A stretch of 64,000 bases of DNA, from contig WGLX01000006.1 of assembly GCA_016125355.1 (NCBI GenBank), positions 109,047 to 173,046 on the forward strand, read 5' to 3'. A program made the position numbers and the translations under genes. A model generated the notes under the pieces. It was not told the DNA's origin. It did not search any database and saw nothing but the letters and a program-made list of their open reading frames with translations. This stretch comes from Actinomycetales bacterium. GTDB taxonomy: Bacteria > Actinomycetota > Actinomycetes > S36-B12. Shown here piece after piece: positions 24,020 to 52,554 of this stretch. Within the stretch, counting starts at the first letter, position 1; each line of letters starts with the position of its first letter.

Positions 24020-25327
<1,308 letters not shown>

Positions 25328-25567: not shown

Positions 25568-25843
25568 GTGGACGACAACCGACGGATTGCGCGCACGCCC
25601 GGCGTGCTGGAGGCCGAGGTCGACGGCGACCGAGTCCTCATGCATCCAGACGACTACACCTACTACGGCCTGACCGAGACCGGGGCCGCCGTGTGGAGCC
25701 TGATCGACGGCACGCGCTCCGTGGCCGACGTGGTCGCCGCACTGGCCGAGGAGTACGACGCGACGCCCGCGGTCATCCGAACGGACGTCGAGAGCTTCCT
25801 CAGCGGCATGGAGGCGGCCAAGCTGGTCACCTACGGGACCTGA
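25568..25843 (+). CDS. PqqD-family RiPP recognition element (lasso B1-type peptide chaperone)
   Basis: 91 aa with the typical PqqD pattern: [75 protein letters not shown]. It ends 4 nt before the ABC transporter start. Confidence 0.8.
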
Positions 25844-25847
25844 CCGC

Positions 25848-27632
25848 GTGGATCCGTCCGGGTCAGCGAACCAGACCGTGCCCTCGACGAGCACGGCAAC
25901 CCGCGATGCCCGAGAGCTCCTTGGCTTCGCATGGCGTTCGGAGCCCCGACGGCTGGCGTCTCAGTCCGTCCTCCTCGTGGCCACCGGCCTCACCGGAGGA
26001 ATCAGCATGCTCATGCTGGTGCCGGTCGTGAACTCCGTCGCCGGATCGTCCGGGGGAATGACGATCGACATCCCGATCCTGTCCAGCCTGGATCTGTCGG
26101 GGATCCCCCTCCCCGTCCTCCTCCTCATCGTGGTCGCACTGGTCGCCCTGCAGTCCGCACTGTCCTATGCATCGTCGGTGAGCGCCGTCCGGCTGCAGCA
26201 GCTCGTGGTCGACCGGCTCCGGTCGCGCGCCTTCGTGGCGATCCTGGCCGCCCGCTGGGAGTTCGTCCTGGACTCCCGCCGCAGCGACATCGCCGAGATC
26301 GCGACCACCGGCGCTAATCGATGCGGACAGGCCATGAGCGGACTGCTGCGAGCGGCCGTCGCCGCCGTCCTGTCGATCGCCACGGCCGTGGTGGCCCTCA
26401 TCGTGGCGCCCCTCCTCGCCGGGCTGACCATCGTGGCAGTGCTGGCCTTCTCGATCGGACTCATGCGGAGCCTGCGGCCCGCACACGAGATGGGGCAGGC
26501 GTACGGCCTCCGCAATCGAGTCCTGCAGTCCGTCATGCTGAACTCGCTGGACTCCCTCCGGCTGGTCCGGGCGCACGGGGCGGCCGACGTCTGGACGGAT
26601 CAACTGACGGTCGCCTTCGGGGACACCCGCGCCATCCAGCTGGCGAACGTGCGACGCACATCCCGCGTCGCGGCGGTCGCCGCGATCGGTCTGGCGGCGA
26701 GCGCTGCCCTCCTCGTCTTCGTCGCCGTCCAGCTGGACGTGCCGGCCGCGACGATCGTCGTGGTCCTCGTGCTCGCGGCCAGGCTCTCGGCGTCAGTACG
26801 CGGCGTACTGAGCAGCCTGCAGCAGGCGGCGAATGCGCTGCCCGCAGTCGCCGACGTGCGCGAACTGACCGAGCGTGCCGTGGCGGCCGCGGAGAACGGT
26901 GGCGGCCTGGCCGCCCTCCCCCCGCCCGATCCGTCACGCCCGACCGTCGCGCTGCGGAGAGTGACGTACCGCTACCCGGACAGCGATGAGGGCGTCCTCG
27001 ATCTCACTTTCGACATCCCGCGCGGTCGCATCACTGCCCTCGTGGGCCCCTCGGGCGCTGGCAAGTCGACCACCGCCGACATCGTCCTCGGACTCCTGCA
27101 CCCGCGGGAGGGCACCATCGAGGTCGATGGCACGCCGCTCACCCCAGAGCTGCTCGAGTCGTGGCGTCGGCGCGTTGCCTACGTTCCGCAGGACACGCTC
27201 CTGCTCCCGGGCACCCTGCGCTGGAACCTCGTCTGGTCCAGTGCTCGCGAGTCGGTGTCCGACGAGGAGTGCTGGGCGGCCCTCGATGCCGCCGCCGCAG
27301 GCTTCGTGCGCGCCCTTCCCCAAGGACTCGACACCGACCTCGGCGACCGGGGCGTACGGCTCAGCGGGGGCCAGCGGCAACGCCTGGCGATCGCCCGGGC
27401 GCTCGTCCGACGGCCCGAGGTGCTCGTGCTCGACGAGGCGACCAGCGCCCTCGACGACGCCACCGAGGCAGCCGTCCTGTCCGTGCTCTCCTCCCTGACA
27501 CCAGCGCTCACCGTGCTCGTGATCGCCCACCGCAGCACGACGATCGACGTGGCCGACACGGTCGTGACCCTCGAGAGCGGACGGGTGACGGGGATCGCCG
27601 CACGCACGGGTGCCCGCGGAGGCACTCCGTGA
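25848..27632 (+). CDS. ABC transporter, fused permease/ATPase (RiPP exporter or immunity type)
   Basis: 594 aa with an N-terminal 6-TM-like domain, Walker [10 protein letters not shown], the signature [15 protein letters not shown] and Walker [13 protein letters not shown]. Confidence 0.9.
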
Positions 27633-28420
27633 TCGCCCCCGCGGATCCGGGGCTCGCCACCCTCGACCGCTCCGGCGAGCCATGGCTGGGTCACGCACAC
27701 GGTCTGGGGACGGTCCGGGTGTATGCCGATGGCCGGTACGACGTGGAACCGGCCGAAGGCGCCGACGCACGCGCTGCAGAGACACTCGAGCACGGCTGGG
27801 CCGAGCTGCTCGGGCACATCCGTCTCGGCCGCCGGATCGTCGGCGGGACGGTCATGCTGGCACCGGACGCAGCGGATTCCCTGCTCGTGTCCGGCGGGAT
27901 GACGGAGCAGTCACAGGCATGCGTCCTGCTCGCCGAGCGCGGATGGCGCCGGGTGTCGGACGGCTTCACGCCGATCGACACCACCACTCCCCTGCGCGCC
28001 TACCGTCGGGGCGGACCGTGGCTGGTCCCACGGCGGCTGGGCCTGGACTCCGATCTCCTCGACGGCCGCCGGATCCGACCGGGTGCCACCGCACAGGAGG
28101 TCCCGACCCCACCGGTGCCGGAGTCGGTGCCGCTGCGGGCCCGCGTCCTCGTCTCCGAGCACGAGGCGACGACGGGCGAGCCGGTGCCCGTGCTTGCCGA
28201 GGTGTCCGGCCGCCGCCGTATGGGCGTCCAGTTCCAGGCATTCGCCGACCGGTTCGTGGGGGGCGCTGCGGATCCGGCACGCGTCATGGCCGACGACCTG
28301 GCCATCAGCAGTCTCCCCTTGTCGACCCTGCAATGGCCGGCGCTCTACCTCGCGCCGCGAGACGAGCGACTCGCCGCGGTCGACGCCCTGGTGGACTGGT
28401 GGAGGGGCCTCAACCCATGA
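27629..28420 (+). CDS. HPr-kinase-like protein with a degenerate P-loop (possible pseudokinase or scaffold)
   Basis: GTG at 27629 (GTGA overlap with the ABC stop), 263 aa. It aligns by eye to the other HprK-like proteins here (LLVSGGMTEQSQACVLLAERGWRRVSDGFTPID versus [32 protein letters not shown]), but GxGKST is replaced. Confidence 0.55.
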   Translation: MIAPADPGLATLDRSGEPWLGHAHGLGTVRVYADGRYDVEPAEGADARAAETLEHGWAELLGHIRLGRRIVGGTVMLAPDAADSLLVSGGMTEQSQACVLLAERGWRRVSDGFTPIDTTTPLRAYRRGGPWLVPRRLGLDSDLLDGRRIRPGATAQEVPTPPVPESVPLRARVLVSEHEATTGEPVPVLAEVSGRRRMGVQFQAFADRFVGGAADPARVMADDLAISSLPLSTLQWPALYLAPRDERLAAVDALVDWWRGLNP

Positions 28421-30198
28421 ACGATCCCACCGGCCCGATCGTCTGGCTCGCCTCGTACCCGAAGTCCGGCAATACCTGGTTCCGTGCGATCCTGTCGGCC
28501 GTCAAGCGCGGTACCGAGCTGTTCACCCTCGACGTACTCGCCTCGGGCGGCCAGCCGTTCGGTCTGGCCACCAGCGTCGACGTACTGGGGCTCGATCCCC
28601 GGTGGCTGACCCGCAGCGAGGCCGAGCGGTTGCGGTACACGTTGGTGTCGGGGGCCACCGGCGACGAGCCGCGATTCCGCAAGACCCACGAGCGCTACCG
28701 CACCACGCCGATCGAGTGGCCCGAGGCCGAAGGCGACCCGCCGCCACCATTTCCGGTCGAGGCGACGCGGGCGGCCGTGACGATCGTTCGGGATCCGCGA
28801 GCGGTCGCGGTGTCGCTCGCGCACCACTTCGGCAAGTCGCTCGAGGACTCCGTGGACCGGATGGCCCGTGACGACACCCAGCGCGCCGACCCCGCACGGC
28901 TCATCGGTGAGCAGCCCTGGGGGTCATGGTCCGGTCACGCCAGGGCGTGGCACCCGGCCCATCTGCCCTTCCCCGCCTACCGGATCCGCTACGAGGACAT
29001 GCTCGAGCGGCCGATCGAGACGCTCGTTCCGGTTCTGACCGGCGTGGGGATCGAGGTCGACGAGGCGACCCTCGTCGCGGCGCTGGAACGGGTCCGCATC
29101 GATCGTCTTCAGCAGGACGAGGCCGAGCAGGGCTTCCGTGAGACCCATGCCCGAGCACAGCGCTTCTTCCGATCAGGCTCGGCGGACGCGTGGCGCACGG
29201 AGTTGCCGGCCCACCTGATCCGAGCGATCGAGGCCGACCACCAGGACGTCATGGCGGAGTTGGACTACCCGCTCACCAGCGACGCGCCGACCCGCAGGGC
29301 GACGCTGCGCGCCCGCACATCGGCGCGGCGTCATCGCGTCATTCCGTGGAACCGCCTGCCCGACCACCTCGCCTTGGAGGTGAACGAGGGCGCTGTGCCC
29401 GACACCCTCGACGGCGCCCGCAGCGTCCGGCCCTGGCTCGACGTGGCACCGGGCCGGGCCCTCGTCAGGCTGACCGGCGGGACGCGCGTTCTCGTTGCCG
29501 ACGGCTGCCGAGCGACCGTCCACATCGACGCGGACCAGCGAACCAGCGGCGACTGGGCATGGCCGGTGCAGGGCTGGACGGTCGCTCTGGCGATGCTGCA
29601 GCGCGGTCATCTCGTGCTGCACGCGGCAGCTCTCGAACGCGACGGGCGGGCGGTGTGCGTGGCCGGCGCGACCCGAGCCGGGAAGTCGACGACCGCGGTC
29701 GGACTACTCGATCGCGGCTTCCGGCTGCTCGTGGACGACGTGGCCGTCATGGACCCCGAGGGGGATGGGTCGACCGTCCTCCCGTACCTCAGGGGCGTGC
29801 ATCTGACCCGCTCGGCAGCGGAGCGATTGGGCCTCGACTACGACAACCTGCCCGCCTTGTCCGCTGGCCGCGGCAAGGCGGTCTTCCTCGGCGATGACCC
29901 GGGCGGGATCCCGGTGCCGTTGGGAACGGTCGTCGTCCTTCGGCGCTCGGCGGCGATCGGGGCGGTCACCTCGCGTTGGCTGACCGGGACCGAGAAGCTC
30001 GCCGCCCTCCGGCAGCAGACAGACCGAGACGGTGCTGCGGCCGCGATCCTCGGGCAGGCACCGTACTTCGAGCGCCTGGCGAGGTTGGCCGCGTCGACGC
30101 CCGTCCTCGAACTGACCCGTCCGCCGCGAACGTGGTCACTGCAGGAGGTCGTGGAGGGCGTCATGGCGGCCGAGTCCCAGGTCCTTTCCTCTTCCTGA
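28417..30198 (+). CDS. sulfotransferase fused to an HPr-kinase-like domain
   Basis: ATG at 28417 (ATGA overlap), 593 aa. The N-terminal half has the PAPS 5'-PSB motif SYPKSGNTWFRAIL and the 3'-PB-like TIVRDPRAVAVSLAHH. The C-terminal half has LHAAALERDGRAVCVAGATRAGKSTTAVGLLDRGFRLLVDDVAVMD. There is no in-frame stop between the halves, but an internal start cannot be excluded. Confidence 0.8.
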   Translation: MNDPTGPIVWLASYPKSGNTWFRAILSAVKRGTELFTLDVLASGGQPFGLATSVDVLGLDPRWLTRSEAERLRYTLVSGATGDEPRFRKTHERYRTTPIEWPEAEGDPPPPFPVEATRAAVTIVRDPRAVAVSLAHHFGKSLEDSVDRMARDDTQRADPARLIGEQPWGSWSGHARAWHPAHLPFPAYRIRYEDMLERPIETLVPVLTGVGIEVDEATLVAALERVRIDRLQQDEAEQGFRETHARAQRFFRSGSADAWRTELPAHLIRAIEADHQDVMAELDYPLTSDAPTRRATLRARTSARRHRVIPWNRLPDHLALEVNEGAVPDTLDGARSVRPWLDVAPGRALVRLTGGTRVLVADGCRATVHIDADQRTSGDWAWPVQGWTVALAMLQRGHLVLHAAALERDGRAVCVAGATRAGKSTTAVGLLDRGFRLLVDDVAVMDPEGDGSTVLPYLRGVHLTRSAAERLGLDYDNLPALSAGRGKAVFLGDDPGGIPVPLGTVVVLRRSAAIGAVTSRWLTGTEKLAALRQQTDRDGAAAAILGQAPYFERLARLAASTPVLELTRPPRTWSLQEVVEGVMAAESQVLSSS

Positions 30199-30249
30199 CG
30201 CCATTCGCGGGGCCTTGAAGGCCGAATGGGGACCTGCTTCACTTTGCGG

Positions 30250-30378
30250 ATGAATCGATCATTTCGCCCATGGACGCCGCCGCGGATCGAGATGCTGAGG
30301 AGCGCGGCCTCGGCCGAGAGCGGCAACTCCTCCAGCTCGACGGAGAACACGACGTCCAACCCGTCGGCACCCCGGTAG
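30250..30378 (+). CDS. lasso-type RiPP precursor peptide A-a (42 aa)
   Basis: Not in the ORF track (<60 aa). MNRSFRPWTPPRIEMLRSAASAES|GNSSSSTENTTSNPSAPR. It shares W-x-x-P-x-(I/L/V/M)...A-E-S-G with four other small ORFs. The predicted core is Gly1...Glu8. Confidence 0.75.
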   Translation: MNRSFRPWTPPRIEMLRSAASAESGNSSSSTENTTSNPSAPR

Positions 30379-30448
30379 TCCTTACCGCAGGCCCGCGCAC
30401 CGGCAGAGAACCGTTGCGCGGCATGCGAGGACGTGCTTGACTCCAGGG

Positions 30449-30577
30449 ATGAATACGACAAATCGCCCGTGGTCAGCTCCGCAGATGGAGGTCCTGAGCC
30501 ACGTCCTGTCGGCGGAGAGCGGCAACACCTCATTGATCAGCGAGTCGTCCGTTTCCGGCCCTTCGTCACCGAACTAG
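30449..30577 (+). CDS. lasso-type RiPP precursor peptide A-b (42 aa)
   Basis: Not in the ORF track. MNTTNRPWSAPQMEVLSHVLSAES|GNTSLISESSVSGPSSPN. It has the same length and register as A-a, and conserved codons (ATGAAT...CGCCC(A/G)TGG, GAGAGCGGCAAC). Confidence 0.75.
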   Translation: MNTTNRPWSAPQMEVLSHVLSAESGNTSLISESSVSGPSSPN

Positions 30578-30630
30578 GTCCGAGCTCCGGGGGCTTGTCC
30601 CTTCTGCCCCCCCTGTGCTTCGCTCAGCCC

Positions 30631-30768
30631 ATGACAAACTCATTGCGGATCTGGTCCACCCCTCAGATCCTCGTCCTGCGCTCGACCGCCTCGGCCGAGT
30701 CCGGCACGCACACCACCATCACCGAGGCGACCGCAACCACGTACAGCTCCCCGTCCGGCGGCCGCTAG
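30631..30768 (+). CDS. lasso-type RiPP precursor peptide A-c (45 aa)
   Basis: C-terminal part of track ORF 30433..30768, starting at the ATG at 30631. MTNSLRIWSTPQILVLRSTASAES|GTHTTITEATATTYSSPSGGR. Core Gly1...Glu8. Confidence 0.75.
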   Translation: MTNSLRIWSTPQILVLRSTASAESGTHTTITEATATTYSSPSGGR

Positions 30769-30774
30769 GCCGAT

Positions 30775-30795
30775 ACCGGGTGTCCCGGGCGGTTT
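30775..30795 (+). terminator. weak hairpin plus T-run after the third tandem precursor gene
   Basis: CCGGG-tgt-CCCGG followed by GCGGTTTT, in the 43-nt gap between the convergent A-c and A-PCP-TE genes. The stem is short, so support is weak. Confidence 0.3.
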
Positions 30796-30811
30796 TCCGC
30801 GACCTGTCCGA

Positions 30812-33358
30812 TCAGCCCGTGACGTCGTCCATCGCGTCGAGGGCCTCGCGAATCGCGGTCGCCGTGTGCAGCCCTGCGGAGCCCGCGATCATCCCGTTGT
30901 GGGTCGCCTCGACGACCACCTGCGTCAGACGGACGCCGGGAATCGCGCTCCAGCCGAGGTCCGAGCGGTCCTGACGACCGCCACCAGCGCCCACCGCCCT
31001 CACGAGAACCACATCCCCCTCATAAGGACCGTCCTCGTGGTTCCTGCTGGCCACCTTGGCGAGGGCTTCGAAAGCCGCATGCTGACGTTCTCCGCGACGG
31101 GCCACGACCCCTGCGGTGAGGGCAAGCCATCGGCGACGAGCCCGACGCATCGGCAGCCGGGCCGCCCAGAACGCCTTGCGGGTGAGCGACGATGCCTTCC
31201 CCTGCGCGGCGCGCACCGCCTCCGCCTGCCGGAGCGCAGGACGTAGATCCGATCGCAGCCGTCGGGCCCGGTTCACCTGCTCCGTGACGGCCAGCGTGTC
31301 CAGCAGCACCACGAGGGGCACCGTCACCCCACGGGTGGTGAGCACGCGCGCGGTCTGCATGGCCACCGTGCCCCCGATGGAGTGGCCGATCAGCACGACC
31401 GGCCCGGTGCCCGCCACCTCGACGATGTCCGACGCGGCCGTCGTCGCCATGGCCTCGATGGTGCGGTCAGGGCGCTCGCGTCGGTCGAAGCCGCGTGGCA
31501 CAGCGACCCAGGCGGTACGGCCGCCGATCGTCCGTGCCAGCGTGGCCATCCCGGAGGTGTGGCCACCGCCACCGCCCGGGAAGAGCACCATCGGCACCGC
31601 ATCGCTCGGACCGGTCGCCGCGCGCACGAGGCGCTGCCGGTCCGGGGCGGCCGACACCCAGGCCTCGGCGAGGAGGGCGGGCGTTGGGTGGCGAAGGAGC
31701 AACCCCTCGGACACCGGACGTCCCCATACCGCCTCCAGTCGGGCGCAGACCTCCGACAGCGCGAGCGAGTCCGCGCCCAGGGCCAGCAGGTCGTCGTCGC
31801 GGCCGATGGCCGGATCACCGAGCACGGACCCGAACACCTCGGCAGCCTGCTGCTCGAAGGGGGATCGCGGTGGTGAGAACGCCGGCCTTCCGGTCGCCGA
31901 AGCCATGGCGGTGAGCGCCGCTCGGTCCACCTTGCCCCGGTCCGTGGAGGGCAGCGCGTCCAGCACCTCAACGCGGGCGGGAACATGCGTTCGGGGCAGG
32001 CGATCCGCGAGTGCCGCGCGCACCTGCCACCCGCGGAGGTCCTGGCCCACGACGAACGCCACAGGACGGGGGCGACCTGCCTGGTCGACGGCGATCACCA
32101 CGGCCGCCTCGTCCACGCCAGGCACGCGGCGCACGACGGCCTCGACCTGAACCGGGTCCACGAGCGCTCCCGAGACCTTGACGACATCGTCGGAGCGTCC
32201 CCGCAGGATCAGGGCGCCTGAGACGTCCCACGTGGCCCGGTCGCCGGTCCGGTACGACCGCCCTGTCGGGAGGTCGAGAAACCTCTCGGCGGTTCGCTCG
32301 GGGTCGTCGAGGTAGCCCAAGGCCAGCCATTCGCTCGACACGACAACCTCGCCGACGTCCTCCGGCCCGACGTCCCCACCATCCGGCCCGACCACCCGCA
32401 CCGTGAGCCACGGCACGACCTCGGTCAGCGGAATGGGATCGGTCGGGACGGGCTCCCCCGGGGGGATGCGAACGCCGGCGATCCAGTTGGTCTCGGAGGT
32501 GCTGTACCGGTGGAGCAGGGTTGCCTCGGGGAACAGCGCCCGTGCGCGATCGATCTGGGCAGCGGTCAGCCGGTCGCCGCCGAGGCTGACCAGGCGGACC
32601 CCCGGCAGGGGCGGCATGTCAGCGGACGCCAGCGCAGTGAGGGCTGCCGGCGCCAGGTGCGCGACGGTGACGCCCTCATCGGCGAGGCGATCGAGCACCG
32701 TGTGCGGACCCTCGGCGCTCAGGTCGGCCGTGATCAGGCGTGCGCCGTGCACCAGTGCGGTCCACGTGGGCGTGCCCGCCGCCACGGCGGAGAACGGGCT
32801 GGACACGAGCACCACGTCGTCTTCCGTGATCCCGACGGAACGGCCGTACGACTCGGCGTTGTGCACGATGCTCCGATGGGCGTGCACAACCGCCTTCGGG
32901 CGGCCCGCGGTCCCCGATGTCATCGAGACGGACGCAGGCAGCCCAGCCGCGGGCCAGCTCGGCGAAGTGATGGTCCGCGGGGGCGCTTCGACAGGAATCA
33001 CCTGCGGCCCCAGATCCAGAGCGGCTCGGCGGTGCAGGATGTCGGCAACCACCGCGCCCACGGAGTGCCGCGCCAGGACCTCCGCGTGGAACGCCGGCGG
33101 AGCATGGGGATCGAGCACGAGGTAGGCACGTCCCGACCAGGCGACACCGAGCATGGCCGCAACCATGTCGAGCCCGTCAGTGCACAGCACCGCCACGGGC
33201 CGGTCGGGCAGGGGGGCATCGCCCACCGCGGCGGCGAGCGCGGCGGATCGGACCGCGAGCTCGCGATAGGACAGAGCGCCGTGACGGGACAGGACGGCGA
33301 CCTTGTCGCAGTCCTCGCGGCCGGCGAGGACAGACTCGGGGAGGCTGCGGTCAGCCAT
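30812..33358 (-). CDS. stand-alone NRPS-like protein: adenylation - PCP - thioesterase
   Basis: 848 aa. A-domain cores: SMTSGTAGRPKAV, YSTSET, YRTGD, GRSDDVVKVSG and PSTDRGKVDR. PCP: LGADSLALSE. TE: GHSIGG. Its start overlaps the cyclase stop by 8 nt. Confidence 0.88.
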   Translation of the reverse strand: MADRSLPESVLAGREDCDKVAVLSRHGALSYRELAVRSAALAAAVGDAPLPDRPVAVLCTDGLDMVAAMLGVAWSGRAYLVLDPHAPPAFHAEVLARHSVGAVVADILHRRAALDLGPQVIPVEAPPRTITSPSWPAAGLPASVSMTSGTAGRPKAVVHAHRSIVHNAESYGRSVGITEDDVVLVSSPFSAVAAGTPTWTALVHGARLITADLSAEGPHTVLDRLADEGVTVAHLAPAALTALASADMPPLPGVRLVSLGGDRLTAAQIDRARALFPEATLLHRYSTSETNWIAGVRIPPGEPVPTDPIPLTEVVPWLTVRVVGPDGGDVGPEDVGEVVVSSEWLALGYLDDPERTAERFLDLPTGRSYRTGDRATWDVSGALILRGRSDDVVKVSGALVDPVQVEAVVRRVPGVDEAAVVIAVDQAGRPRPVAFVVGQDLRGWQVRAALADRLPRTHVPARVEVLDALPSTDRGKVDRAALTAMASATGRPAFSPPRSPFEQQAAEVFGSVLGDPAIGRDDDLLALGADSLALSEVCARLEAVWGRPVSEGLLLRHPTPALLAEAWVSAAPDRQRLVRAATGPSDAVPMVLFPGGGGGHTSGMATLARTIGGRTAWVAVPRGFDRRERPDRTIEAMATTAASDIVEVAGTGPVVLIGHSIGGTVAMQTARVLTTRGVTVPLVVLLDTLAVTEQVNRARRLRSDLRPALRQAEAVRAAQGKASSLTRKAFWAARLPMRRARRRWLALTAGVVARRGERQHAAFEALAKVASRNHEDGPYEGDVVLVRAVGAGGGRQDRSDLGWSAIPGVRLTQVVVEATHNGMIAGSAGLHTATAIREALDAMDDVTG

Positions 33359-34940
33359 CGCCCGTGCCGTCCCGGTCTGCTCGGGTCCGGCGGACGAGCT
33401 CCAGCAGCACGGGGTCGTCCTTCGACGTCATGCGGATGTGGTCGGGCACGAGGCCGTCCAGGGCCTTGCGGAACACCAGGCGAGTGTGCCCGCCCAGGCG
33501 GAACACCTCCGGCGGCATGGCCAGCGCCCACTCGACGAGCCGCACGTCCAGTAGGGGGTAGCGGTACTCGACCCCGAAGAGGAGCCCGGCCTCCCGCCAC
33601 GACTCGATCCGGCGCGCCAGGTGGTCGTTGGCGATGAGCGCCTCCTGCACGCCGCGGGGCGAACCCGCCGACCGCAGCCGCACCCGGTGCGCGCGCTGCG
33701 CAGCCACCAGCTCGGGGTGCTCGTGGCCGGTGCTCGCCATGAACTTCTCGCTCGTGCGGGGCTCTTGACGCCTCCCGCCGCGAAGTCGATCCCAGGGATC
33801 CCCGCCCGGCAGCGCCTCCAGCGCCAAGTCCGAGGCCGCCTGTGCACGGGACCGCCCGCGCGACCGGAGTTCCCGATAAGCGGCGCGAACCGGACCGACC
33901 TTGATGGAGCGCACCAGGGCCCGATTCGTCATGCGTCCGTTGAAGCTGGCGAACTCATCGCCGCCCCACCCGCTGAAGATCTGGCGGACGCCGAACTCCG
34001 CATACCGCGGGAGGATCGTGGACTCCCGATTGAGGGTGGAACGAGGCAGCCGGACCGGATCGATCCGCGCCAGCCACTCGGCTTCTCCCAGTTCGTGATG
34101 CCCGAAGATGACCGGCAGGTCGTGCTCAGCGGCCAGCTCCTGGACCAGGGCCCGTTCGTCATAGGCGATGTCGGCACTGTCGAGCGAAGGCAGCGATACC
34201 GGATCGGGGGACCAGGACACGACGGCCGCCAGCGTGCGCCCGCGGGAAGCCAGCTCGCGTTGGACGAGCAGTGCCACGGCCGTGGAATCGAGGCCGCCGG
34301 ACAGGTGTGCGGCGATCGCGTTGACGTCGTCGTGAGGTTCGCCGCGGAGCGCCGCCTCGACGTGGTCTGCCACGACGCCGAGCAGCAGCGCGCGCAGGCA
34401 GTCGGCGGCCTGGTCCACGGAGATGCCGCGCGCCTTCGGCACCTTCTCGGGGAGCCACCACCGGGTGACCGCTGCCTCGCGTCCTTGAATGCGCACCGCA
34501 CAGCCGGGAGGCACGCGATGGACGCCTGCCGCAGGCGTGCGGGTCGGCACCGTCGCGAGCGCGCGGGCCTTGGTCGCCCATGCGAATTCGGCGTCCGCTG
34601 CGATGCCTCCCGGCCGCGCAGCGAGAACCTCGGCGAGGGAGTCGGCGACCACCACGCCGTCGTCCGTTCGGGACCAGTACACGGGCATCAGGCCGAGTTG
34701 GTCCCGGACGATGAGGAGCCCGTCGCCGTCATCGACGGCGTATCCCCACGCACCGCGGAGGCGGGGGCCGGCGGCCCCTCCCCACCGCGTGGCGGCGGCT
34801 GACACGACCTCGCCATCCGAGGCAGAGGCGGATAGCCCCAACCCCGTCTCGAGCTCGGCCCGGTTCGTCAGCCAGCCAGCACTCCACACCACCTCGGCAG
34901 CGGGAGGGTCGGCCAGCACGTGGACATTGTGCCGCGTCAT
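33351..34940 (-). CDS. asparagine-synthetase-like lasso peptide cyclase (C protein)
   Basis: 529 aa. An N-terminal Ntn-like region is followed by the PP-loop AHLSGGLDSTAVA and the AsnB-type C-terminus (GVEYRYPLLDVRLVEWAL). It is divergent from precursor A-d, 54 nt away. Confidence 0.85.
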   Translation of the reverse strand: MTRHNVHVLADPPAAEVVWSAGWLTNRAELETGLGLSASASDGEVVSAAATRWGGAAGPRLRGAWGYAVDDGDGLLIVRDQLGLMPVYWSRTDDGVVVADSLAEVLAARPGGIAADAEFAWATKARALATVPTRTPAAGVHRVPPGCAVRIQGREAAVTRWWLPEKVPKARGISVDQAADCLRALLLGVVADHVEAALRGEPHDDVNAIAAHLSGGLDSTAVALLVQRELASRGRTLAAVVSWSPDPVSLPSLDSADIAYDERALVQELAAEHDLPVIFGHHELGEAEWLARIDPVRLPRSTLNRESTILPRYAEFGVRQIFSGWGGDEFASFNGRMTNRALVRSIKVGPVRAAYRELRSRGRSRAQAASDLALEALPGGDPWDRLRGGRRQEPRTSEKFMASTGHEHPELVAAQRAHRVRLRSAGSPRGVQEALIANDHLARRIESWREAGLLFGVEYRYPLLDVRLVEWALAMPPEVFRLGGHTRLVFRKALDGLVPDHIRMTSKDDPVLLELVRRTRADRDGTGDG

Positions 34941-34994: not shown

Positions 34995-35132
34995 ATGACT
35001 TCGAAGATGCCATGGGGGACCCCCGAGCTGACCCTCCTGCGTTCCGCGGTGGACGCAGAGTCGGGCACGAGGTACTCCGACAGTTCCGAGGGCCAGAGCC
35101 AGTTGACCTTCGTGCCGTCCGGCCAGGCCTAA
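34995..35132 (+). CDS. lasso-type RiPP precursor peptide A-d (45 aa)
   Basis: Not in the ORF track. MTSKMPWGTPELTLLRSAVDAES|GTRYSDSSEGQSQLTFVPSGQA. Core Gly1...Glu9, with Asp6 too close to close a ring. Confidence 0.78.
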   Translation: MTSKMPWGTPELTLLRSAVDAESGTRYSDSSEGQSQLTFVPSGQA

Positions 35133-35206: not shown

Positions 35207-36049
35207 ATGACGACGCGTGTGCACTCTCTGCCTGCCCACCTCGGCATCGCTGTCCGCCGCGGCGTCGTACCGACGTCGCTCTCGGGTGGCCGACGCCTCC
35301 CGGGCGGCGTCACTGTCGCCGACGGCACCACCCTGGTGCGGTTTCCCCAAGGTGCCCTCCTCGTCGAGGACGGCACCACAGCCACGGTCGACTGGCCCGG
35401 CGGCAGCGACGTCCCGTCCTGGGTCATCGAGTCTTGGGCCGTGAGCCTGGCCATGGTGCAGCGCGGGAACCTCTGTCTGCACGCGTCCGTGGTTGCCGTG
35501 GGCGACCGGGTCGTCGCCATCGCCGGTGACTCGGGGGCCGGCAAGTCGACCACGGTGCTGGCCCTCGAGGCGCGGGGCCACCGCCTCCTGACCGACGACG
35601 TGGCCATCGTCGACCTGCGACCCGATGGACCGTGGGTGCTGCCGTACCAGCGCAGCGTCCATCTGCTCCCGGACGCGGCGGCCGCGCTCGACGTTGACTT
35701 CGCGGATCTGGCTCCCCTCGCCGACTTCCCCGAAAAGTCCGCCTACCATCCCGCGGCACCGCCGACCGATCCTCTGCCGATCCACGCCGTGGTGCTGCTC
35801 GTGCCGAATGAGGGCATTGAGATGCCCCGCGTGAGGGAACTGCGGGGCGTCGAGAAGGTGCAGTCGACGATGGTCCACGCGGGCCGACCGGTCACGTCTC
35901 CCGCGATCATGGGCGAGGAACGCTACTTCGCGGCCCTGACCGAGCTGGCCGCGCGGACCCCGGTCTACCTCCTCGAGCGGCCGGAAGGCGCGTGGACCCT
36001 CGACGAGGTCTGCACGGCCATCGAGTCGGTGGCCGCCGAGAAACGCTGA
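35207..36049 (+). CDS. HPr-kinase-like protein (candidate RiPP Ser/Thr kinase)
   Basis: ORF 35012..36049 trimmed to the ATG at 35207, giving 280 aa. [46 protein letters not shown] has an intact P-loop. Confidence 0.8.
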   Translation: MTTRVHSLPAHLGIAVRRGVVPTSLSGGRRLPGGVTVADGTTLVRFPQGALLVEDGTTATVDWPGGSDVPSWVIESWAVSLAMVQRGNLCLHASVVAVGDRVVAIAGDSGAGKSTTVLALEARGHRLLTDDVAIVDLRPDGPWVLPYQRSVHLLPDAAAALDVDFADLAPLADFPEKSAYHPAAPPTDPLPIHAVVLLVPNEGIEMPRVRELRGVEKVQSTMVHAGRPVTSPAIMGEERYFAALTELAARTPVYLLERPEGAWTLDEVCTAIESVAAEKR

Positions 36050-36092: not shown

Positions 36093-36233
36093 ATGCGCAC
36101 ACAGAAGCCCTGGGCCGCGCCCGAGGTAGCACTCCTGCGCGCAGCAGGGGACGCCCAAGGCGGTACTTACTCGTGGTCGACGGAGAACTCCGAGACGGCC
36201 ACCGGGTGCGTCGTTCCCTCAGGCAACGTCTGA
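36093..36233 (+). CDS. lasso-type RiPP precursor peptide A-e (46 aa; possible longer form from the ATG at 36057)
   Basis: Not in the ORF track. MRTQKPWAAPEVALLRAAGDAQG|GTYSWSTENSETATGCVVPSGNV. Core Gly1...Glu8. It ends 10 nt from the convergent A-PCP-TE stop. Confidence 0.75.
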   Translation: MRTQKPWAAPEVALLRAAGDAQGGTYSWSTENSETATGCVVPSGNV

Positions 36234-36243: not shown

Positions 36244-38862
36244 CTAGGCCGACACTCGATTCAAGGCCTCCCGAACGAGACGTGCGGTCTCCGCCACGTA
36301 CGGTTCGTCCACCAACGTCTCGTGCGTGCTCGGGACCGTGCGGATCTGCACGGATCCCCGAACGAAATCTCCCCAGCGCAGGTCCGGCGGAGCGGATCCC
36401 AGATTGCGCGGATCCGACACGGCGGCGCAGATGAGCAGCAGGTCGCCCTCGAACGGCTTCTCCCGGTAGCGGGCCAGCGCGACCGCGACCACGGACTGGA
36501 ATGCCGCATCCCGGCGCTCGCTTCCGACGGGCAGCCAGCGGGCTGACGCCGCTCGGGCCCGGATGGCGACCCGCTCCCCCACGACGCGTCCCGACCAGAA
36601 GGCTCGCCGGGCCCAGCCCGTCCGCTGACCCCGTCGGGCACGCTCCGCCTCGCCGACGCGCACGTGCCGCGGGATGGCTGCACGTAGGGATCGCGACAGG
36701 CGCAGCTGCGGCGATCGCGGTGGCGAGTCCAGGACGACGACGAGCGGGACCTCGACGCCCGCGGCCCGCAGCTGGCGTGCGGCCTCCACCGCGATGTTCC
36801 CTCCCGAGGACATGCCGACCAAGGCGACCGGGCCGGGGGTGCCCTCGGCCAGCCAGTCCGACACGGCGGATCCCGCGATGCCCGTCACCGACCGATCGAT
36901 CCGCCCCCGGTACTGGTACCCCCGGGGGACCACGAGGAAGCACGGCCGACCCGCGACATGTCGAGCCAGCCGGGCGATGCCGGCCAGGCGCGTTCCGCCG
37001 CCGCCACCGAACAGGAGCAGCGGAACCCCTGTCCCGTCCACCGACGACAGCCGGATCAGGCGCGAGTCCCGCGAGGACCCCGGGCGGGCAGGCGCCCTCA
37101 GCGACTCGGCCAGACGGGCCGCCGTCGAGTGCCGAAGGAGCGTCGCCGCCGGCACGTCCCGCCCCAGCCTGGCCGACAGCGCCGATGCCGCCTCCTCGAG
37201 TCCCAGCGAGTCGGCGCCGAGGGCGAGGATGTCGTCGTCCCGGCCAAGGTCGTCCCGCCCGACCACCATGCCGAACTCCGCGAGGATCACAGCCTCGAGG
37301 TCGTCCCGGGCCGGAGCGAACTCCGGTCTCCCGGCGGCCACGGCACGGGTCGCGAGGGCATCGGCGTCCACCTTCCCCATGGGAGTGAGCGGCAGCTCGT
37401 CGACGATCTCGACCACGGCAGGCACCATCGCCGCAGGCAGGGCCGCGGCCACGGCACCGCGCAGGTCGACGGCCCGCACGCCGTCGGCGACGGCGAAAGC
37501 CGCGAGCCGCCGCTCTCCTGACTCGGTGTCGAAGGGCACGACCGCAGCGGCCTCGACACCCTCGACTGTTTCGAGCACGGCCTCGATGCGCACCGGGTCG
37601 ACGAGCACGTCGTGGATCTTCACGGTGGCATCGGCACGACCCGCGAACTCGAGCATCCCGTCCGGGCCACGTCGCATGCGATCGAGGGTCCGGTACCGCT
37701 GCTCGGCTCCGGCAGCCGAGAAGCGCGTGTCGGTGAGCTCCGCATCGTCGAGGTAGCCCAGGGCGAGATGGTCGCCGCGCACCTCCGCCTCGCCCTCACC
37801 CTCGCCGACGGCGACGGCACCATCGGGACCGACCAGGTCGAGGGCCAGCCACGGCACCGGCCAGCCGATGGGCACCGTACCTGTGCCGGGAAGCACAGCC
37901 ACATCGATCTCGAGCCCAGCGGTCCAGTTCGTCTCCGAGGTGTTGTAGCGGTGCAGGAGCCGCGCCTCGGGGAACATCCGATGCGCGGTGCGCACCTGGT
38001 CGACCGTGAGGCGATCGCCGCCCGTCAGGACCCAGCGGACGGTGTCGCAGGTGCGTGAGCCAGCACGCGACCCCAGCGCGGTGAGCAGGCCGGCCGTCAG
38101 GAACACCACCGAGCCGCGACGCTCGTCGAGCGTCGCCACCAGGTCGTCGACACCGGACGACAGGTCGTGGACGAGAGCGGTCGCTCCGCTCAGCAGCGCC
38201 GTGAACACCGGGGTGGCTCCGGCGACGAACGGGAACGGCAGGGTGGCCGCCAGGACGTCGCCGTCGCCCACTTCGAGTGCGCGAGAGACGCGCAGGGCGT
38301 TGTGCACGACGGACCGGTGGGCATGGACCACGGCCTTCGGCCGTCCGGACGTGCCCGAGGTGGACGAGACCGCCACCGGCGCGCCCGGATCGACGGCACG
38401 GTCAAGGGCCGCGCGGCCAGCCGGGGCGTCGAAGGACACGACGGGCGCTCCGCCGGACAGGCGCTCCGCCAGCACCGACTGGCCGGTGTCTCCGATCACC
38501 GCCGAGAGCCGGTGCCGGGAGCTGACCCGCTCGAGGTGCGCCACGGGTGCCTTCGCGTCGAGCACGAGGTACGCCCCGCCGGCGCGCGCCACAGCCAGCA
38601 TGGCCACGACCGCGCGGACATCGTGCCCGGCAAGTACTCCGACCGGGCGCCAGGGGTCCAGTCCCTCCGGCAGTGCCGCAGCGAGGGCTTCGGCTCGGTC
38701 ATCCAGTTCCGCATAGGTGAGGGACTGCTGCCGATCGACCACCGCCGTGCGCCCCGGCCAGCTCCGGACGGCCTCACGGAACGCCACGTCGAGTGTCCGC
38801 TCAGCCCTGTCGGGGTCGTCCAGATCGGCGGCCGGCGGCAGCAGCCACGGTCCGCTGTTCAC
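36244..38862 (-). CDS. second stand-alone NRPS-like protein: adenylation - PCP - thioesterase
   Basis: 872 aa and a paralogue of 30812..33358. Motifs: SSTSGTSGRPKAV, YNTSET, GRADATVKIHD, PLTPMGKVD, the PCP LGADSLGLEE and the TE GMSSGG. Confidence 0.88.
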   Translation of the reverse strand: MNSGPWLLPPAADLDDPDRAERTLDVAFREAVRSWPGRTAVVDRQQSLTYAELDDRAEALAAALPEGLDPWRPVGVLAGHDVRAVVAMLAVARAGGAYLVLDAKAPVAHLERVSSRHRLSAVIGDTGQSVLAERLSGGAPVVSFDAPAGRAALDRAVDPGAPVAVSSTSGTSGRPKAVVHAHRSVVHNALRVSRALEVGDGDVLAATLPFPFVAGATPVFTALLSGATALVHDLSSGVDDLVATLDERRGSVVFLTAGLLTALGSRAGSRTCDTVRWVLTGGDRLTVDQVRTAHRMFPEARLLHRYNTSETNWTAGLEIDVAVLPGTGTVPIGWPVPWLALDLVGPDGAVAVGEGEGEAEVRGDHLALGYLDDAELTDTRFSAAGAEQRYRTLDRMRRGPDGMLEFAGRADATVKIHDVLVDPVRIEAVLETVEGVEAAAVVPFDTESGERRLAAFAVADGVRAVDLRGAVAAALPAAMVPAVVEIVDELPLTPMGKVDADALATRAVAAGRPEFAPARDDLEAVILAEFGMVVGRDDLGRDDDILALGADSLGLEEAASALSARLGRDVPAATLLRHSTAARLAESLRAPARPGSSRDSRLIRLSSVDGTGVPLLLFGGGGGTRLAGIARLARHVAGRPCFLVVPRGYQYRGRIDRSVTGIAGSAVSDWLAEGTPGPVALVGMSSGGNIAVEAARQLRAAGVEVPLVVVLDSPPRSPQLRLSRSLRAAIPRHVRVGEAERARRGQRTGWARRAFWSGRVVGERVAIRARAASARWLPVGSERRDAAFQSVVAVALARYREKPFEGDLLLICAAVSDPRNLGSAPPDLRWGDFVRGSVQIRTVPSTHETLVDEPYVAETARLVREALNRVSA

Positions 38863-39815
38863 GCGGGTTCCCGGGATTCACGACTCACCCCGTGCGTGGA
38901 TCCGGCGGCCAGCACGCGCTCGGATCCACCCTCCGCAGCGCCCCAGGAACGCATGCGAAGCGCGTGGTCCGCATCGTCCGCTGAGCGCCACTCCCAGCTG
39001 ATGTGCCAGAGGCGCGCCTTTGCGGTCGCGCGCGCCCCGAGCGCCTCGATGGCCTCGGCGAGCCTCCGGCGCTCGTCGCCGTCGAGGTACATCAGCAGGG
39101 CGCTGTGCCAGATCACCGTGTCCGTGCCGGGTTGCAGCGTGAGGGACGCGGCGTAGTCCGCGGCCGAGCGCCGCACCACCGCCGCCGGCATGTCCGCCGC
39201 CCACGCGAGCGCACGATCCAGGGCCTCGCGTCGCCGCGGGTTGTCGATCCACACATAGCTGCGGAGCAGGGCCACGTCGTCGGGGTCCCTCGGGTCCAGC
39301 GGGTCGAGGTCGCACCCACCGCGCTCGACGATCTCCGGCAGGCGTGCGGCGTCGTGCGCATCAGTCCACTGCTCCGGATGCAGGTTGAGACCCGCGGACG
39401 CCCCGAGCTCGAACAGGCGGACCGGCCCGGGGATCTCGGCCAGGGCCCGACGCAGCTGCCGACCCCGTCCGATCTCGTTCGTCTGCGGCACCCGGGCGAG
39501 ATAGTGCGCGAGCACCTCGGGATGCTGCCGGAGGGCGTCCGCCACGGCGGACCTCTGCGCGGGGCCGGGCTCCCGGGGCAGGTCGGCATCGCCGTCGAGA
39601 ATGAGCCGGTGCAGTGCCGCGAGGATGCGCAGCCCCACCCGGTCCCCCGAGCGCACCCGGGGCGGAAGGAGCGTAGACGTGGGGCCGGTCAGGCCGTCGA
39701 CCACGGCACCGAGCAGGGCGGCGGAGACCGGCGCGTCCATCGCGAGGCAGAACTCCTGCTGCCAGCGAAGCGCATCCACCAGGTCGACGATCGCATCGTC
39801 AGGGGGTCGGTGCAC
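38859..39815 (-). CDS. DUF2332-like protein
   Basis: 318 aa. YLARVPQTNEIGRGRQLRRALAEIPGPVRLFELGASAGLNLHPEQW matches my recollection of the DUF2332 signature (QTNE..R ... E.GaSAGLNL). It overlaps the downstream A-PCP-TE start by 4 nt. Confidence 0.6.
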   Translation of the reverse strand: MHRPPDDAIVDLVDALRWQQEFCLAMDAPVSAALLGAVVDGLTGPTSTLLPPRVRSGDRVGLRILAALHRLILDGDADLPREPGPAQRSAVADALRQHPEVLAHYLARVPQTNEIGRGRQLRRALAEIPGPVRLFELGASAGLNLHPEQWTDAHDAARLPEIVERGGCDLDPLDPRDPDDVALLRSYVWIDNPRRREALDRALAWAADMPAAVVRRSAADYAASLTLQPGTDTVIWHSALLMYLDGDERRRLAEAIEALGARATAKARLWHISWEWRSADDADHALRMRSWGAAEGGSERVLAAGSTHGVSRESREPA

Positions 39816-39877
39816 CCCGTCAGTATCGTCGCCCCGCGCGGCACGCGGGACGGGTCCCTCGCGGTACGTTACGGAGC

Positions 39878-40993
39878 GTGACTGCCGGGGTGCCGCCGCT
39901 GCGAGACATCGTGCCGGGCTGGCGTCCCCCCGCCCCCGGGCGCGCGATCGCCGTGGTCGAGGGCGAGGGCATCGGGGCCGAGGTCGTGGGCGCGGCCCTC
40001 ACGGTGCTGTCGGCCGCCTGCGATGCCTGGCAGACCGAGGTCCTCGTCGACCGGTCGGGCCCGATCGGCAGCGTCGGTCCGGCCGGTTTCGGCCTCGACC
40101 AGGCCGCGGTCGACTTCTACGATTCCGCCTTCGAGCGTGGGCTGCCGGTGCTCACCGGGCCGGCCGGTGGGCGCTTCGTCTATGAGCTGCGGGCCCGCTA
40201 CGAACTGTTCGTCAAACTCGTCCCGACCCGGCCGGACGCCGGCCTCGCCGACGCCTCGGTCATCCGCCCCGAGCGGCTGCGCGAGGTGGATGTGCTCATC
40301 GTGCGGGACAACATCGGCGGGCTCTACCAGGGTGCCTTCAGCGTGTCCGCGGATGGGCGGTCGGCGTTCCAGGAGGCCCGCTACGACCTCGACACCGTCG
40401 AGGTGCTCATGCAGGTCGCGGTCGCCGCGGCTCGCGCACGCGGCGGCCGTCTCGCCGTGGTCACCAAGCCCGGTGGCATCCCGACCATCAGCGCGCTGTG
40501 GCGTCGAGTGGCCGAGGAGCACGCCGGCGATGACGTGGTGATCGACGTCATCGAGGTGGACAACGCGTGCTTCCAGCTGGTCGCCGACCCCCATCGCTTC
40601 GACGTTGTCGCTGCTCCGAACATGCTCGGCGACGTCGTGGCGGACACCGCCGCCCTCGTGCTCGGCTCGCGCGGGCTGTCCTACTCGGCGAACTTCGGTC
40701 TCCCAGGACGGGCGGTCTACCAGACCGGCCACGGAGCGGCACACGATCTGGCCGGACTCGACCGCGCCAATCCCATTGCCCAGATCAGGTCCCTGGCATG
40801 GCTGATCCGAGAGAGCCTGGAGCTGCCGCACATGGCGGAGTCCATCGAGATGGCGGTGGACTCGGTCCTGGCCGATGGTTTCCGCACCGCCGACATCGCC
40901 AGCCCAGGGTCCACCGTGCTGGGCACCCGGGGGCTCGCGACGCGCATCGCCGAGCGTGTCAAGCAGGCCGCGCTGGACCGCGCTTCACCGTGA
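39878..40993 (+). CDS. isocitrate/isopropylmalate dehydrogenase-family oxidoreductase
   Basis: 371 aa. IAVVEGEGIGAEVV, LIVRDNIGGLY and NMLGDVVADTAA (the NxxGD(I/V)xSD-type motif) are typical of beta-decarboxylating dehydrogenases. Confidence 0.75.
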   Translation: MTAGVPPLRDIVPGWRPPAPGRAIAVVEGEGIGAEVVGAALTVLSAACDAWQTEVLVDRSGPIGSVGPAGFGLDQAAVDFYDSAFERGLPVLTGPAGGRFVYELRARYELFVKLVPTRPDAGLADASVIRPERLREVDVLIVRDNIGGLYQGAFSVSADGRSAFQEARYDLDTVEVLMQVAVAAARARGGRLAVVTKPGGIPTISALWRRVAEEHAGDDVVIDVIEVDNACFQLVADPHRFDVVAAPNMLGDVVADTAALVLGSRGLSYSANFGLPGRAVYQTGHGAAHDLAGLDRANPIAQIRSLAWLIRESLELPHMAESIEMAVDSVLADGFRTADIASPGSTVLGTRGLATRIAERVKQAALDRASP

Positions 40994-43337: not shown

Positions 43338-43448
43338 CGCCTCCGACGTGCGCGCCCAGCCGGCCACGCGTGCCCGGGGCGATGTCGTCACGAGGCCGAG
43401 TGTAGGCGCGGGCCCCACCGCCGCGCGGCTCTCGGCTACCGTCGACGC

Positions 43449-44694: not shown

Positions 44695-44703
44695 GATGCC
44701 ACC

Positions 44704-46080: not shown

Positions 46081-46097
46081 CCACCGAGATCTCCGAG

Positions 46098-48405: not shown

Positions 48406-48423
48406 GGCAGGAGCGGGTCGGCG

Positions 48424-52095: not shown

Positions 52096-52106
52096 GGCCG
52101 GTCCGG

Positions 52107-52514: not shown

Positions 52515-52554
52515 GCAGGCTCCCTGAGCGCCGAGGACAGTTGGTCGATGCTAC

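Follow-up and report, generated by a model that had tools for sequence, protein, structure and literature searches.

Small genes in an apparently empty gap

Can an apparently empty intergenic gap conceal the precursor genes of several natural products? The question is raised by contig WGLX01000006.1 of an uncultured actinomycete (Actinomycetales bacterium, assembly GCA_016125355.1), of which we analysed a stretch of 64,000 nucleotides (nt; positions 109,047 to 173,046, hereafter the window) with a high GC content of ~72%. The gap spans 613 nt (30199-30811), between a gene for a fusion of a sulfotransferase and an HPrK-like kinase, which ends at 30198, and a gene for a protein with adenylation, peptidyl carrier protein and thioesterase domains (A-PCP-TE), whose lower boundary is 30812. 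A first-pass annotation had located a gap of 430 nt after the sulfotransferase-kinase gene; its position was right, and 430 nt is the length of the part before the third of the open reading frames (ORFs) discussed here. The same annotation had proposed that the region encodes three tandem lasso peptide precursors. We find that these ORFs, which we call pepA, pepB and pepC, are very probably three different precursors of a single multi-precursor lasso peptide cluster (~25.5 to 52 kb) belonging to the kinase-associated, “paeninodin-like” branch. The ORFs concerned are the following, with lengths in amino acids (aa):

pepA, 30250-30378, plus strand: ORF of 42 aa, MNRSFRPWTPPRIEMLRSAASAESGNSSSSTENTTSNPSAPR; leader 1-24, predicted core GNSSSSTENTTSNPSAPR
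pepB, 30449-30577, plus strand: ORF of 42 aa, MNTTNRPWSAPQMEVLSHVLSAESGNTSLISESSVSGPSSPN; predicted core GNTSLISESSVSGPSSPN
pepC, 30631-30768, plus strand: ORF of 45 aa, MTNSLRIWSTPQILVLRSTASAESGTHTTITEATATTYSSPSGGR; predicted core GTHTTITEATATTYSSPSGGR
pepD, 34995-35132, plus strand: fourth paralogous precursor gene, 45 aa
pepE, 36093-36233, plus strand: fifth paralogous precursor gene, 46 aa
Antisense ORF, 29838-30533, minus strand: 231 aa, a non-coding shadow and not a gene

On re-checking, pepA, pepB and pepC were found at the coordinates first described, and pepD and pepE account for the remaining two of the “five peptides” mentioned at that time. Trp8, Pro11 and Gly25, which had been reported at shared positions, align in register across pepA, pepB and pepC, as do Met1, Leu16 and Glu32. 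The three peptides are 41-48% identical in amino acid sequence.

Evidence that the ORFs are genes

A hidden Markov model (HMM) built from 11 peptides outside the window picks exactly pepA to pepE among the 1,113 stop-to-stop six-frame segments of the window. E-values for the five range from 9.7e-12 to 3.5e-16 (pepA 3.2e-14, pepB 9.7e-12, pepC 1.1e-12), and the next segment has E = 0.003. In addition, pepC gives a tblastn match to the first peptide gene of the related locus L082. The GC content at third codon positions (GC3) is 0.86 for pepA, 0.79 for pepB and 0.91 for pepC, typical for genes in this genome. No direct DNA repeats, tandem repeats or Rfam families were found across the three gene units, and third codon positions are near saturation among the paralogs; together with the level of amino acid identity, this indicates that the similarity is maintained at the protein level.

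The first-pass annotation had suggested examining selection on the small ORFs, which was informative for pepD and pepE. Compared with their orthologs in the close relative L001, pepD differs by 5 synonymous and 1 non-synonymous changes (dN/dS 0.06) and pepE by 7 synonymous and 4 non-synonymous changes (dN/dS 0.18), so both are under purifying selection. For pepA, pepB and pepC, dN/dS could be calculated only among paralogs.

A motif, TGCTT[C/G][A/G]CT, stands exactly 6 nt 5' of the ATG of pepA (30235-30243, TGCTTCACT), pepB (30434-30442, TGCTTGACT) and pepC (30616-30624, TGCTTCGCT), and these are its only 3 occurrences in the 64 kb, for a pattern (TGCTTSRCT-N6-ATG) that was defined post hoc. 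It supports the chosen start codons, and it may serve in translation initiation or processing, or act as a promoter element. In L082, a similar sequence, TGCTTCCCT, is found 7 nt upstream of the first of the peptide genes. A scan for sigma-70 promoters and intrinsic terminators found none, and the intergenic spacers fold no better than shuffled sequences (z -0.3 to -1.5).

The 231-aa antisense ORF is indeed present, and the earlier view of it as a mere shadow is borne out. It has no Pfam match and is absent from a collection of 15 billion proteins. In tblastn against 165 related loci, the intergenic portion matches nothing (best E = 4), and where the ORF overlaps the fusion gene its matches are all weaker than those of the fusion's sense frame. 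Beyond this overlap, the ORF shows no conservation in the 165 loci. It also overlaps pepA and pepB, each in a different relative frame. By these sequence criteria, pepA, pepB and pepC are genuine paralogous protein-coding genes.

The precursor array is conserved in related clusters

Syntenic clusters with 2-5 tandem copies at the same position occur in at least five other uncultured actinobacteria. The shared gene order is ClpX, PqqD, ABC transporter, a ~265-aa gene, the fusion, small ORFs, A-PCP-TE, Asn-synthase, a small ORF, HPrK and a second A-PCP-TE. The clusters were reached by different routes:

L082-85: found via the fusion gene (55% identical); 2 small ORFs after the fusion, 1 after the cyclase
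JGI 3300075153 contig: found via the fusion gene (50% identical); 3 small ORFs after the fusion, the first being family member P0097
L169: found via A-PCP-TE (60% identical); 5 tandem small ORFs
L170 (3.7-Mb contig): found via an A-PCP-TE homolog; 4 tandem small ORFs
L167 and L168 (short contigs): found via peptide search; 4 and 2 tandem small ORFs

In L082-85, the JGI contig, L169 and L170, the family members are flanked by the fusion or kinase gene on one side and the A-PCP-TE gene on the other, and the tandem ORFs keep their start and stop positions in other clusters. Loss of the ORFs or of their frame in orthologous clusters, which had been named as evidence that would count against the genes, was not seen.

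The peptides of these clusters share a C-terminal P-S-G-x-x motif (described below), and its distribution follows that of the A-PCP-TE genes. A-PCP-TE homologs that were found independently lead back to clusters of this type, and A-PCP-TE and DUF2332 genes occur only in clusters with P-S-G-x-x peptides, being absent from ~160 other fusion-gene loci. Among the matches listed by a metagenome scan with an alignment of the fusion protein, there was a single fairly close relative, L086, and it lacks P-S-G-x-x peptides.

Leader, core and C-terminal motif

We compiled 29 distinct family peptides and numbered them with the conserved Gly as core residue 1. Trp(-17), Pro(-14), a hydrophobic residue (V/I/L/M/F) at -12 and Leu/Ile(-9) are each present in 29/29, Ala(-3) in 26/29 and Arg(-8) in 20/29. 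The leader motif reads W8-T-P-P11-R-I13 in pepA, W-S-A-P-Q-M in pepB and W-S-T-P-Q-I in pepC. This fits the known leader motif bound by RiPP (peptide that is made ribosomally and then modified post-translationally) recognition elements (RREs), [Y/W]-x-x-P-x-[L/V/I/F/A] (PMC13381572, PMC10368454), and the spacing matches the element reported to be recognised by B1 proteins, Y(-17)/P(-14)/L(-12) (PMC10368454, citing Chekan 2019 and Sumida 2019), in agreement with the canonical lasso leader spacing initially proposed.

Two substitutions in the leader had been pointed out. The Trp in place of Tyr is real and family-wide, and is no novelty: it is nearly invariant in paeninodin-like lasso precursors and a known hallmark of them (PMC13381572). 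The Glu in place of Thr at position -2 holds for pepA to pepD; pepE has Gln, and across the family the position is variable (E13, Q8, M3, also N, L and V), with Thr never found. Earlier lasso precursors are all described as having Thr(-2), except for cases with Ile/Val(-2) (PMC10368454).

In the core, Gly1 is found in 26/29 and Glu8 in 23/29 peptides, and pepA, pepB and pepC have both residues. The tails that would follow an eight-residue ring measure 10 residues in pepA, 10 in pepB and 13 in pepC, long enough for threading; that of pepC contains Tyr14 and Arg21. The peptides end in PSAPR (pepA), PSSPN (pepB) and PSGGR (pepC), and in 29/29 family members the C-terminus consists of [P/A]-S-[G/A/S] and another 2-3 residues, with no terminal Ser acceptor. 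The internal Ser of this P-S-G motif may replace the terminal-Ser acceptor of kinase-type lasso peptides (PMC8498205). Both the motif and its association with A-PCP-TE had been overlooked in the first-pass annotation.

The biosynthetic cluster encodes lasso machinery

The genes around the precursors are as follows:

B1, 25568-25843 (start 25568 or 25604), plus strand: PqqD-family RRE; Pfam PqqD, 73.4 bits against a cutoff of 23.4
D, 25848-27632, plus strand: ABC exporter; Pfam ABC_tran and ABC_membrane; syntenic in L081, L082 and L170
27629-28420, plus strand: conserved 263-aa gene, placed by GC3 frame analysis; homologs in L081, L082-85, L003, L005, L086 and L002
28417-30198, plus strand: sulfotransferase-HPrK-like kinase fusion, 593 aa, directly 5' of pepA; Pfam Sulfotransfer_1 and Hpr_kinase_C, NCBIfam HprK_rel_A
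30812-33358, minus strand: first A-PCP-TE, stand-alone and non-ribosomal peptide synthetase (NRPS)-like; Pfam AMP-binding, PP-binding and Thioesterase; MBI1350208.1
C, 33351-34940, minus strand: Asn-synthetase-like macrolactam (lasso) cyclase; Pfam Asn_synthase (83 bits) and GATase_7; MBI1350209.1
35207-36049, plus strand: second HPrK-like kinase, between pepD and pepE; Pfam Hpr_kinase_C, NCBIfam HprK_rel_A; start set by L001 homology
36244-38862, minus strand: second A-PCP-TE, by Pfam; ortholog fragment 89% identical in L001, 49% in L082
B2, 42888-43418 (start between 43337 and 43418), minus strand: transglutaminase-like leader peptidase; NF033537 lasso_biosyn_B2, 53.8 bits against a cutoff of 33
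47227-48423, minus strand: NTP_transf_5 nucleotidyltransferase; Pfam PF14907, 126 bits; present in syntenic clusters and typical of paeninodin-like clusters

The set of B1, B2 and C is complete in the window and recurs in the syntenic clusters. B1 has as homologs TbiB1 (5v1u, E 4e-9), LppB (9x8z) and PbaB1 (9x90), and is syntenic with the PqqD gene of L081 and L082. B2 also matches Pfam Transglut_core3 and is 49% identical to the B2 of L082/L083; searches of PDB sequences with the cyclase and with B2 were uninformative. HPrK-like domains are encoded at 28417-30198 (the fusion), 35207-36049, 45975-46958 and 49684-52143, the last in an HPrK-GT2 fusion that adds a GT2 glycosyltransferase to the cluster. 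The HPrK-like kinases and the NTP_transf_5 gene fit with the kinase-associated lasso branch.

The fusion protein has about 70 full-length homologs, in which two nucleotide-binding loops, PKSGNTW and the Walker-type GAGKS, are invariant (GAGKS: 30 homologs). Its GenBank model, MBI1350207.1 (838 aa, implied start 27682), is apparently ~245 aa too long, because GC3 switches frame at ~28390 and the homologs measure ~590-610 aa. The over-extended model masks the 263-aa gene at 27629-28420 (plus strand). Nine related loci contain homologs of this gene, for which Pfam and NCBIfam gave no match.

The first A-PCP-TE has NRPS A domains as its best PDB matches (LgrA, 2.8e-92). In A domains, the Asp of the FDxS motif binds the α-amino group of the substrate. 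In a single pairwise alignment with LgrA, this Asp is aligned with Val in the A-PCP-TE, a hint at a substrate other than an α-amino acid. Between the second A-PCP-TE and B2 (38859-42891) lie genes for a DUF2332 protein, an isocitrate/isopropylmalate dehydrogenase-like (IDH-like) protein and a fusion of isochorismatase and aldehyde dehydrogenase (ALDH), which recur in L170, L171 and the JGI contig. The products of these genes may supply the substrate of the A domains.

Weighing the interpretation

Taken together, the machinery, the positional conservation, the register of the leader and the lack of conservation of the antisense ORF support the reading of pepA, pepB and pepC as lasso precursors. 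Several observations weigh against it. None of the genes is preceded by a Shine-Dalgarno sequence. In a codon-usage model trained on 14 window genes, the log-odds of pepA (-0.08) and pepB (0.01) fall between the coding and non-coding distributions; so do those of pepD and pepE, despite their constraint, and the antisense -1 frame scores similarly. These intermediate scores can be attributed to an odd amino acid composition, rich in Ser, Thr and Asn. The dN/dS of pepA to pepC is 0.66-0.89, a value obtained among paralogs with saturated dS, and no close ortholog of this region was recovered. The family has no Thr(-2), a residue that has been called critical for recognition in nearly all lasso precursors. 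The cyclase resembles NCBIfam NF033535 and NF033561 and falls below their narrow lasso-cyclase cutoffs, and B2 lies 12 kb from pepA-C. Finally, the tails of pepA (NTTSNPSAPR) and pepB (SSVSGPSSPN) have no aromatic or bulky plug residues, which makes a threaded topology of these two products uncertain unless tailoring groups act as plugs.

These observations can be set against three other explanations. Were the three ORFs not genes at all, and the DNA instead a non-coding spacer, the source of a regulatory RNA or the 5' portion of an opposite-strand gene (29838-30533), then the missing Shine-Dalgarno sequences, the codon-usage scores shared with the antisense frame and the failure of annotation pipelines to call the ORFs would be expected. 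We give this explanation almost no credence and regard it as effectively refuted: the external HMM matches the window peptides at E <= 9.7e-12, tandem ORFs with conserved starts and stops are present in at least six other clusters, the antisense ORF has neither a Pfam match nor, in 165 related loci, any conservation beyond the fusion shadow, and no Rfam family, significant RNA structure or DNA repeat was found. It is also conceivable that the peptides are real precursors and yet not lassos, their products being heavily phosphorylated, glycosylated or sulfated linear peptides like the linear polyphosphorylated peptides (LPPs), whose RRE, HprK-like kinase and NTP-transferase genes are also those of paeninodin-like clusters, or unthreaded branched-cyclic peptides. 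The abundance of potential tailoring domains (four or five HPrK-like domains, a sulfotransferase, NTP_transf_5 and a GT2 glycosyltransferase), the Ser/Thr/Asn-rich cores, the absence of bulky plugs in pepA and pepB and of Thr(-2), and the similar [Y/W]xxP leader of LPP precursors (PMC13381572) would all suit such products. Nevertheless, every syntenic cluster examined has both the cyclase and the B2 protease, and an acidic residue at a fixed distance from Gly is the best-conserved feature of the core, as expected of a macrolactam acceptor. Furthermore, a scan of ORFs from 24 to 52.5 kb, the small ones in part, turned up no SipW-type signal peptidase, and the LPP leader consensus YxxPxVLxHQxIxFETxxS is absent from pepA-C. 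We therefore consider non-lasso products improbable.

The closest competitor, unlikely as it seems to us, keeps the genes and the lasso pathway and starts the core one residue earlier, with the cut after Glu/Gln (A-E/S-G-N..., the slash marking the cut), giving a nine-residue Ser1-Glu9 ring with Ala as the -2 residue in place of Thr. A conserved slot occupied by Ala in 26/29 peptides would then produce an “invariant, variable, core” pattern that resembles the canonical T-x/core. Distant relatives must be cut directly after Glu (L020, ...D-T-E/G-K-T-S-Y-S-I-N-E; L072, ...N-E/G-K-M-D-Q-P-I-E), the peptide L169_e (S-S-E-A-K-T...) is feasible solely with a core at Pro+13, and the actinobacterial relative L004 (D-A-A/G-K) has Ala(-2) and Pro(-13). 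However, the Gly register is feasible in 27/29 peptides, which have D/E at 7-9, and the Ser1-Glu9 register in 22/29. With the latter, moreover, the ring would have to start from Thr, Ile or Val in L082_1, L082_2, P0097 and P0099, and P0099 would be left without an acidic residue at 7-9. Gly is the most conserved core residue, and placing it at position 1 reproduces the canonical -17/-14/-12 spacing (PMC10368454). The Gly1-Glu8 cores initially proposed are thus present as residues in pepA, pepB and pepC, and as a ring register they are favoured with some confidence, short of proof, over Ser1-Glu9.

Comparison with known systems

The closest described systems are those of paeninodin (Paenibacillus dendritiformis) and PbaA/PbaB1 (P. 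alginolyticus), which like the window have a Trp WxxPx-hydrophobic leader (PMC13381572). Paeninodin-like clusters also combine split B1/B2, a cyclase, an ABC exporter, an HprK-like kinase and an NTP-transferase, and in some of them a sulfotransferase gene has been noted (PMC8498205). The leader register differs, with W(-15)/P(-12) in PbaA and W(-17)/P(-14) in the window. In contrast to paeninodin-like systems, the window lacks Thr(-2), has its conserved Ser within P-S-G-x-x rather than at the C-terminus, encodes at least five precursors, has its sulfotransferase and kinase fused, and contains two A-PCP-TE, DUF2332, IDH-like and isochorismatase-ALDH genes. Its host is an uncultured actinomycete and not a member of the Bacillota.

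BsfA/BsfK from Bradymonas sediminis, another kinase-containing lasso cluster, offers a precedent for a leader without Thr(-2): BsfA has Ile(-2) and the -17/-14/-12 register (PMC10368454). As in the window, its core begins with Gly1 and has an acidic residue at position 8, and the BsfK kinase acts on an internal Ser, Ser3. BsfA nonetheless has Tyr and a conserved Ile/Val(-2) where the window family has Trp, a variable -2 (E, Q, M, N, L, V) and a conserved Ala(-3), and its cluster has a single precursor and neither A-PCP-TE nor a sulfotransferase fusion. In the polyphosphorylated proteobacterial lassos of SyanA/SyanK and in the phosphoglycosylated pseudomycoidin, an HprK-like kinase tailors Ser on the linear precursor, followed by a nucleotidyltransferase (PMC8498205). 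The same enzyme families are present in the window; the SyanA and pseudomycoidin peptides end in Ser, whereas the window family has 2-3 extra residues past the P-S-G Ser.

LPP systems resemble the window in having a [Y/W]xxP leader bound by an RRE, together with an HprK-like kinase, an exporter and an NTP transferase, and LPP and lasso clusters are found in the same places (PMC13381572). The LPP clusters themselves have no cyclase or B2, use a SipW-like peptidase and carry the leader consensus given above (PMC13381572), in contrast to the window.

W-x-x-P peptides next to a sulfotransferase-HPrK fusion also occur in other phyla, in loci that are apparently uncharacterised (L020, L026, L028, L030, L054 and L072; fusion gene 28-45% identical). 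These peptides have the same leader motif and Gly/Ser-initiated cores with D/E at 7-9, and form tandem arrays of up to 13. They differ from the window family in ending in Ser (...P-S) and usually have Thr/Asn-Glu before the core; A-PCP-TE and DUF2332 genes are absent within their 8-10 kb flanks. The arrays comprise 13 copies in Aquirufa nivalisilvae (L030, 14938-19088), 5 in an Anaerolineales metagenome-assembled genome (L054, 12226-14623) and 4 on a contig binned as a Thermoplasmatota archaeon (L028, 9684-15646). If that binning is correct, the last would be unusual for lasso peptides.

A model for the biosynthesis

From the ORFs, their family and positional conservation and the machinery genes, all of which were established directly, we infer the processing, ring register, threaded topology and tailoring steps of the following model. 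B1 (25568-25843) would bind the leader at Trp(-17)-x-x-Pro(-14)-x-hydrophobic(-12) and present the peptide to the cysteine protease B2 (42888-~43400), which would most likely cut before the invariant Gly. The cyclase C (33351-34940) would then join the Gly1 amine to the Glu8 side chain, giving an 8-residue macrolactam ring around a tail of 10-13 residues. The Ser/Thr-rich cores, and above all the P-S-G-x-x motif, are the probable targets of the cluster's tailoring enzymes, namely the sulfotransferase-kinase fusion, the other HPrK-like kinases, the nucleotidyltransferase, the glycosyltransferase and the two A-PCP-TE proteins. The P-S-G Ser and the Ser/Thr-rich core could thereby be phosphorylated, sulfated, glycosylated or acylated. 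The products would be exported by the ABC transporter.

A more speculative extension, which we put forward as a less likely possibility, gives the A-PCP-TE proteins a defining role. The Ser or the C-terminal x-x tail might be acylated or remodelled by a carrier-protein-bound acid, whose precursor possibly comes from the IDH-like and isochorismatase-ALDH genes, with sulfation and phosphorylation on top. The reviews consulted describe no sulfation and no carrier-protein-dependent tailoring of lasso peptides, and a 2026 review of interlocked peptides names neither a sulfotransferase nor a thioesterase.

Neighbouring genes and further small ORFs

A gene for a ClpX-type AAA+ unfoldase with a zinc finger (24020-25327, minus strand) adjoins the PqqD gene and not clpP genes. 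It also flanks the cluster in three other independent loci (L082, 1-117; L170, 16410-17729; L171, 14687-14833). It could be a resistance or target copy, or merely a conserved neighbour; on the model of lassomycin and ClpC1, ClpX might be what the product targets, and the paralog beside four independent clusters a copy conferring self-resistance.

Directly upstream of the HPrK-GT2 fusion, a 147-aa ORF (52107-52550, minus strand) shows a PqqD-like N-terminal pattern. It has a weak BLASTP match to B1 (E 0.013) and no Pfam match, and may be a second, divergent RRE, as judged from its sequence pattern.

Three further small ORFs have a W-Q-x-P-x-V leader: 45797-45912 (plus strand, MADDMNTWQAPEVTQITDAGGATPDATANIRNGTSQQV), 45959-46080 (plus strand, MPESPDDWQAPEVTPLTDPDGASQYPHARIRNLESPSPPP) and 44602-44703 (minus strand, MMEHTPLEPWQPPTVDEVALVEDARAISQV). 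Their short C-terminal parts differ, and a PhyH-like gene and a third HPrK-like gene lie beside them. Their matches are confined to the leader (E 0.003-0.02), and their codon-usage scores are poor. We consider them weak candidates, either for a second precursor type or for leader-like decoys.

A family missed by annotation

The first-pass annotation had called the genes previously uncalled, and this is what the records show. The GenBank accessions around the gap are consecutive: MBI1350207.1 (the fusion, GC156_03730), MBI1350208.1 (A-PCP-TE) and MBI1350209.1 (the cyclase, GC156_03740), so no coding sequence is annotated in 30199-30811. None of 14 start-codon variants of pepA, pepB and pepC is found in the collection of 15 billion proteins (0/14); pepD is the sole one of the five peptides in it, from Logan assemblies only. 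Five natural-product genes are missing from the public annotation of this genome. In L169, 2 of the 5 tandem peptide genes were called.

None of the five peptides matches a Pfam or NCBIfam model, so the family is not covered by any curated model. When the five were used in a word-indexed profile search, only the cluster of pepD itself came back, and about 9 family members are present among 1.84 billion representative proteins. With the genes uncalled both here and in relatives, these numbers indicate that standard annotation pipelines are blind to the family.

Implications

The initial interpretation of pepA, pepB and pepC is essentially right, and we place them as unannotated members of a poorly sampled subfamily of lasso precursors. 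Their kind is known; what is new, as far as the literature surveyed goes, is the lack of Thr(-2), the internal P-S-G motif and the association with A-PCP-TE. In this subfamily the Thr(-2) rule of leader removal is loosened, as position -2 varies and Ala(-3) is conserved. The subfamily co-occurs exclusively with NRPS-like A-PCP-TE proteins, and a sulfotransferase-kinase fusion accompanies it. Its hypervariable, multi-copy cores on a constant leader amount to natural combinatorial libraries. Should A-PCP-TE-dependent tailoring prove true, the products would be the first hybrids of ribosomal lasso and non-ribosomal biosynthesis.

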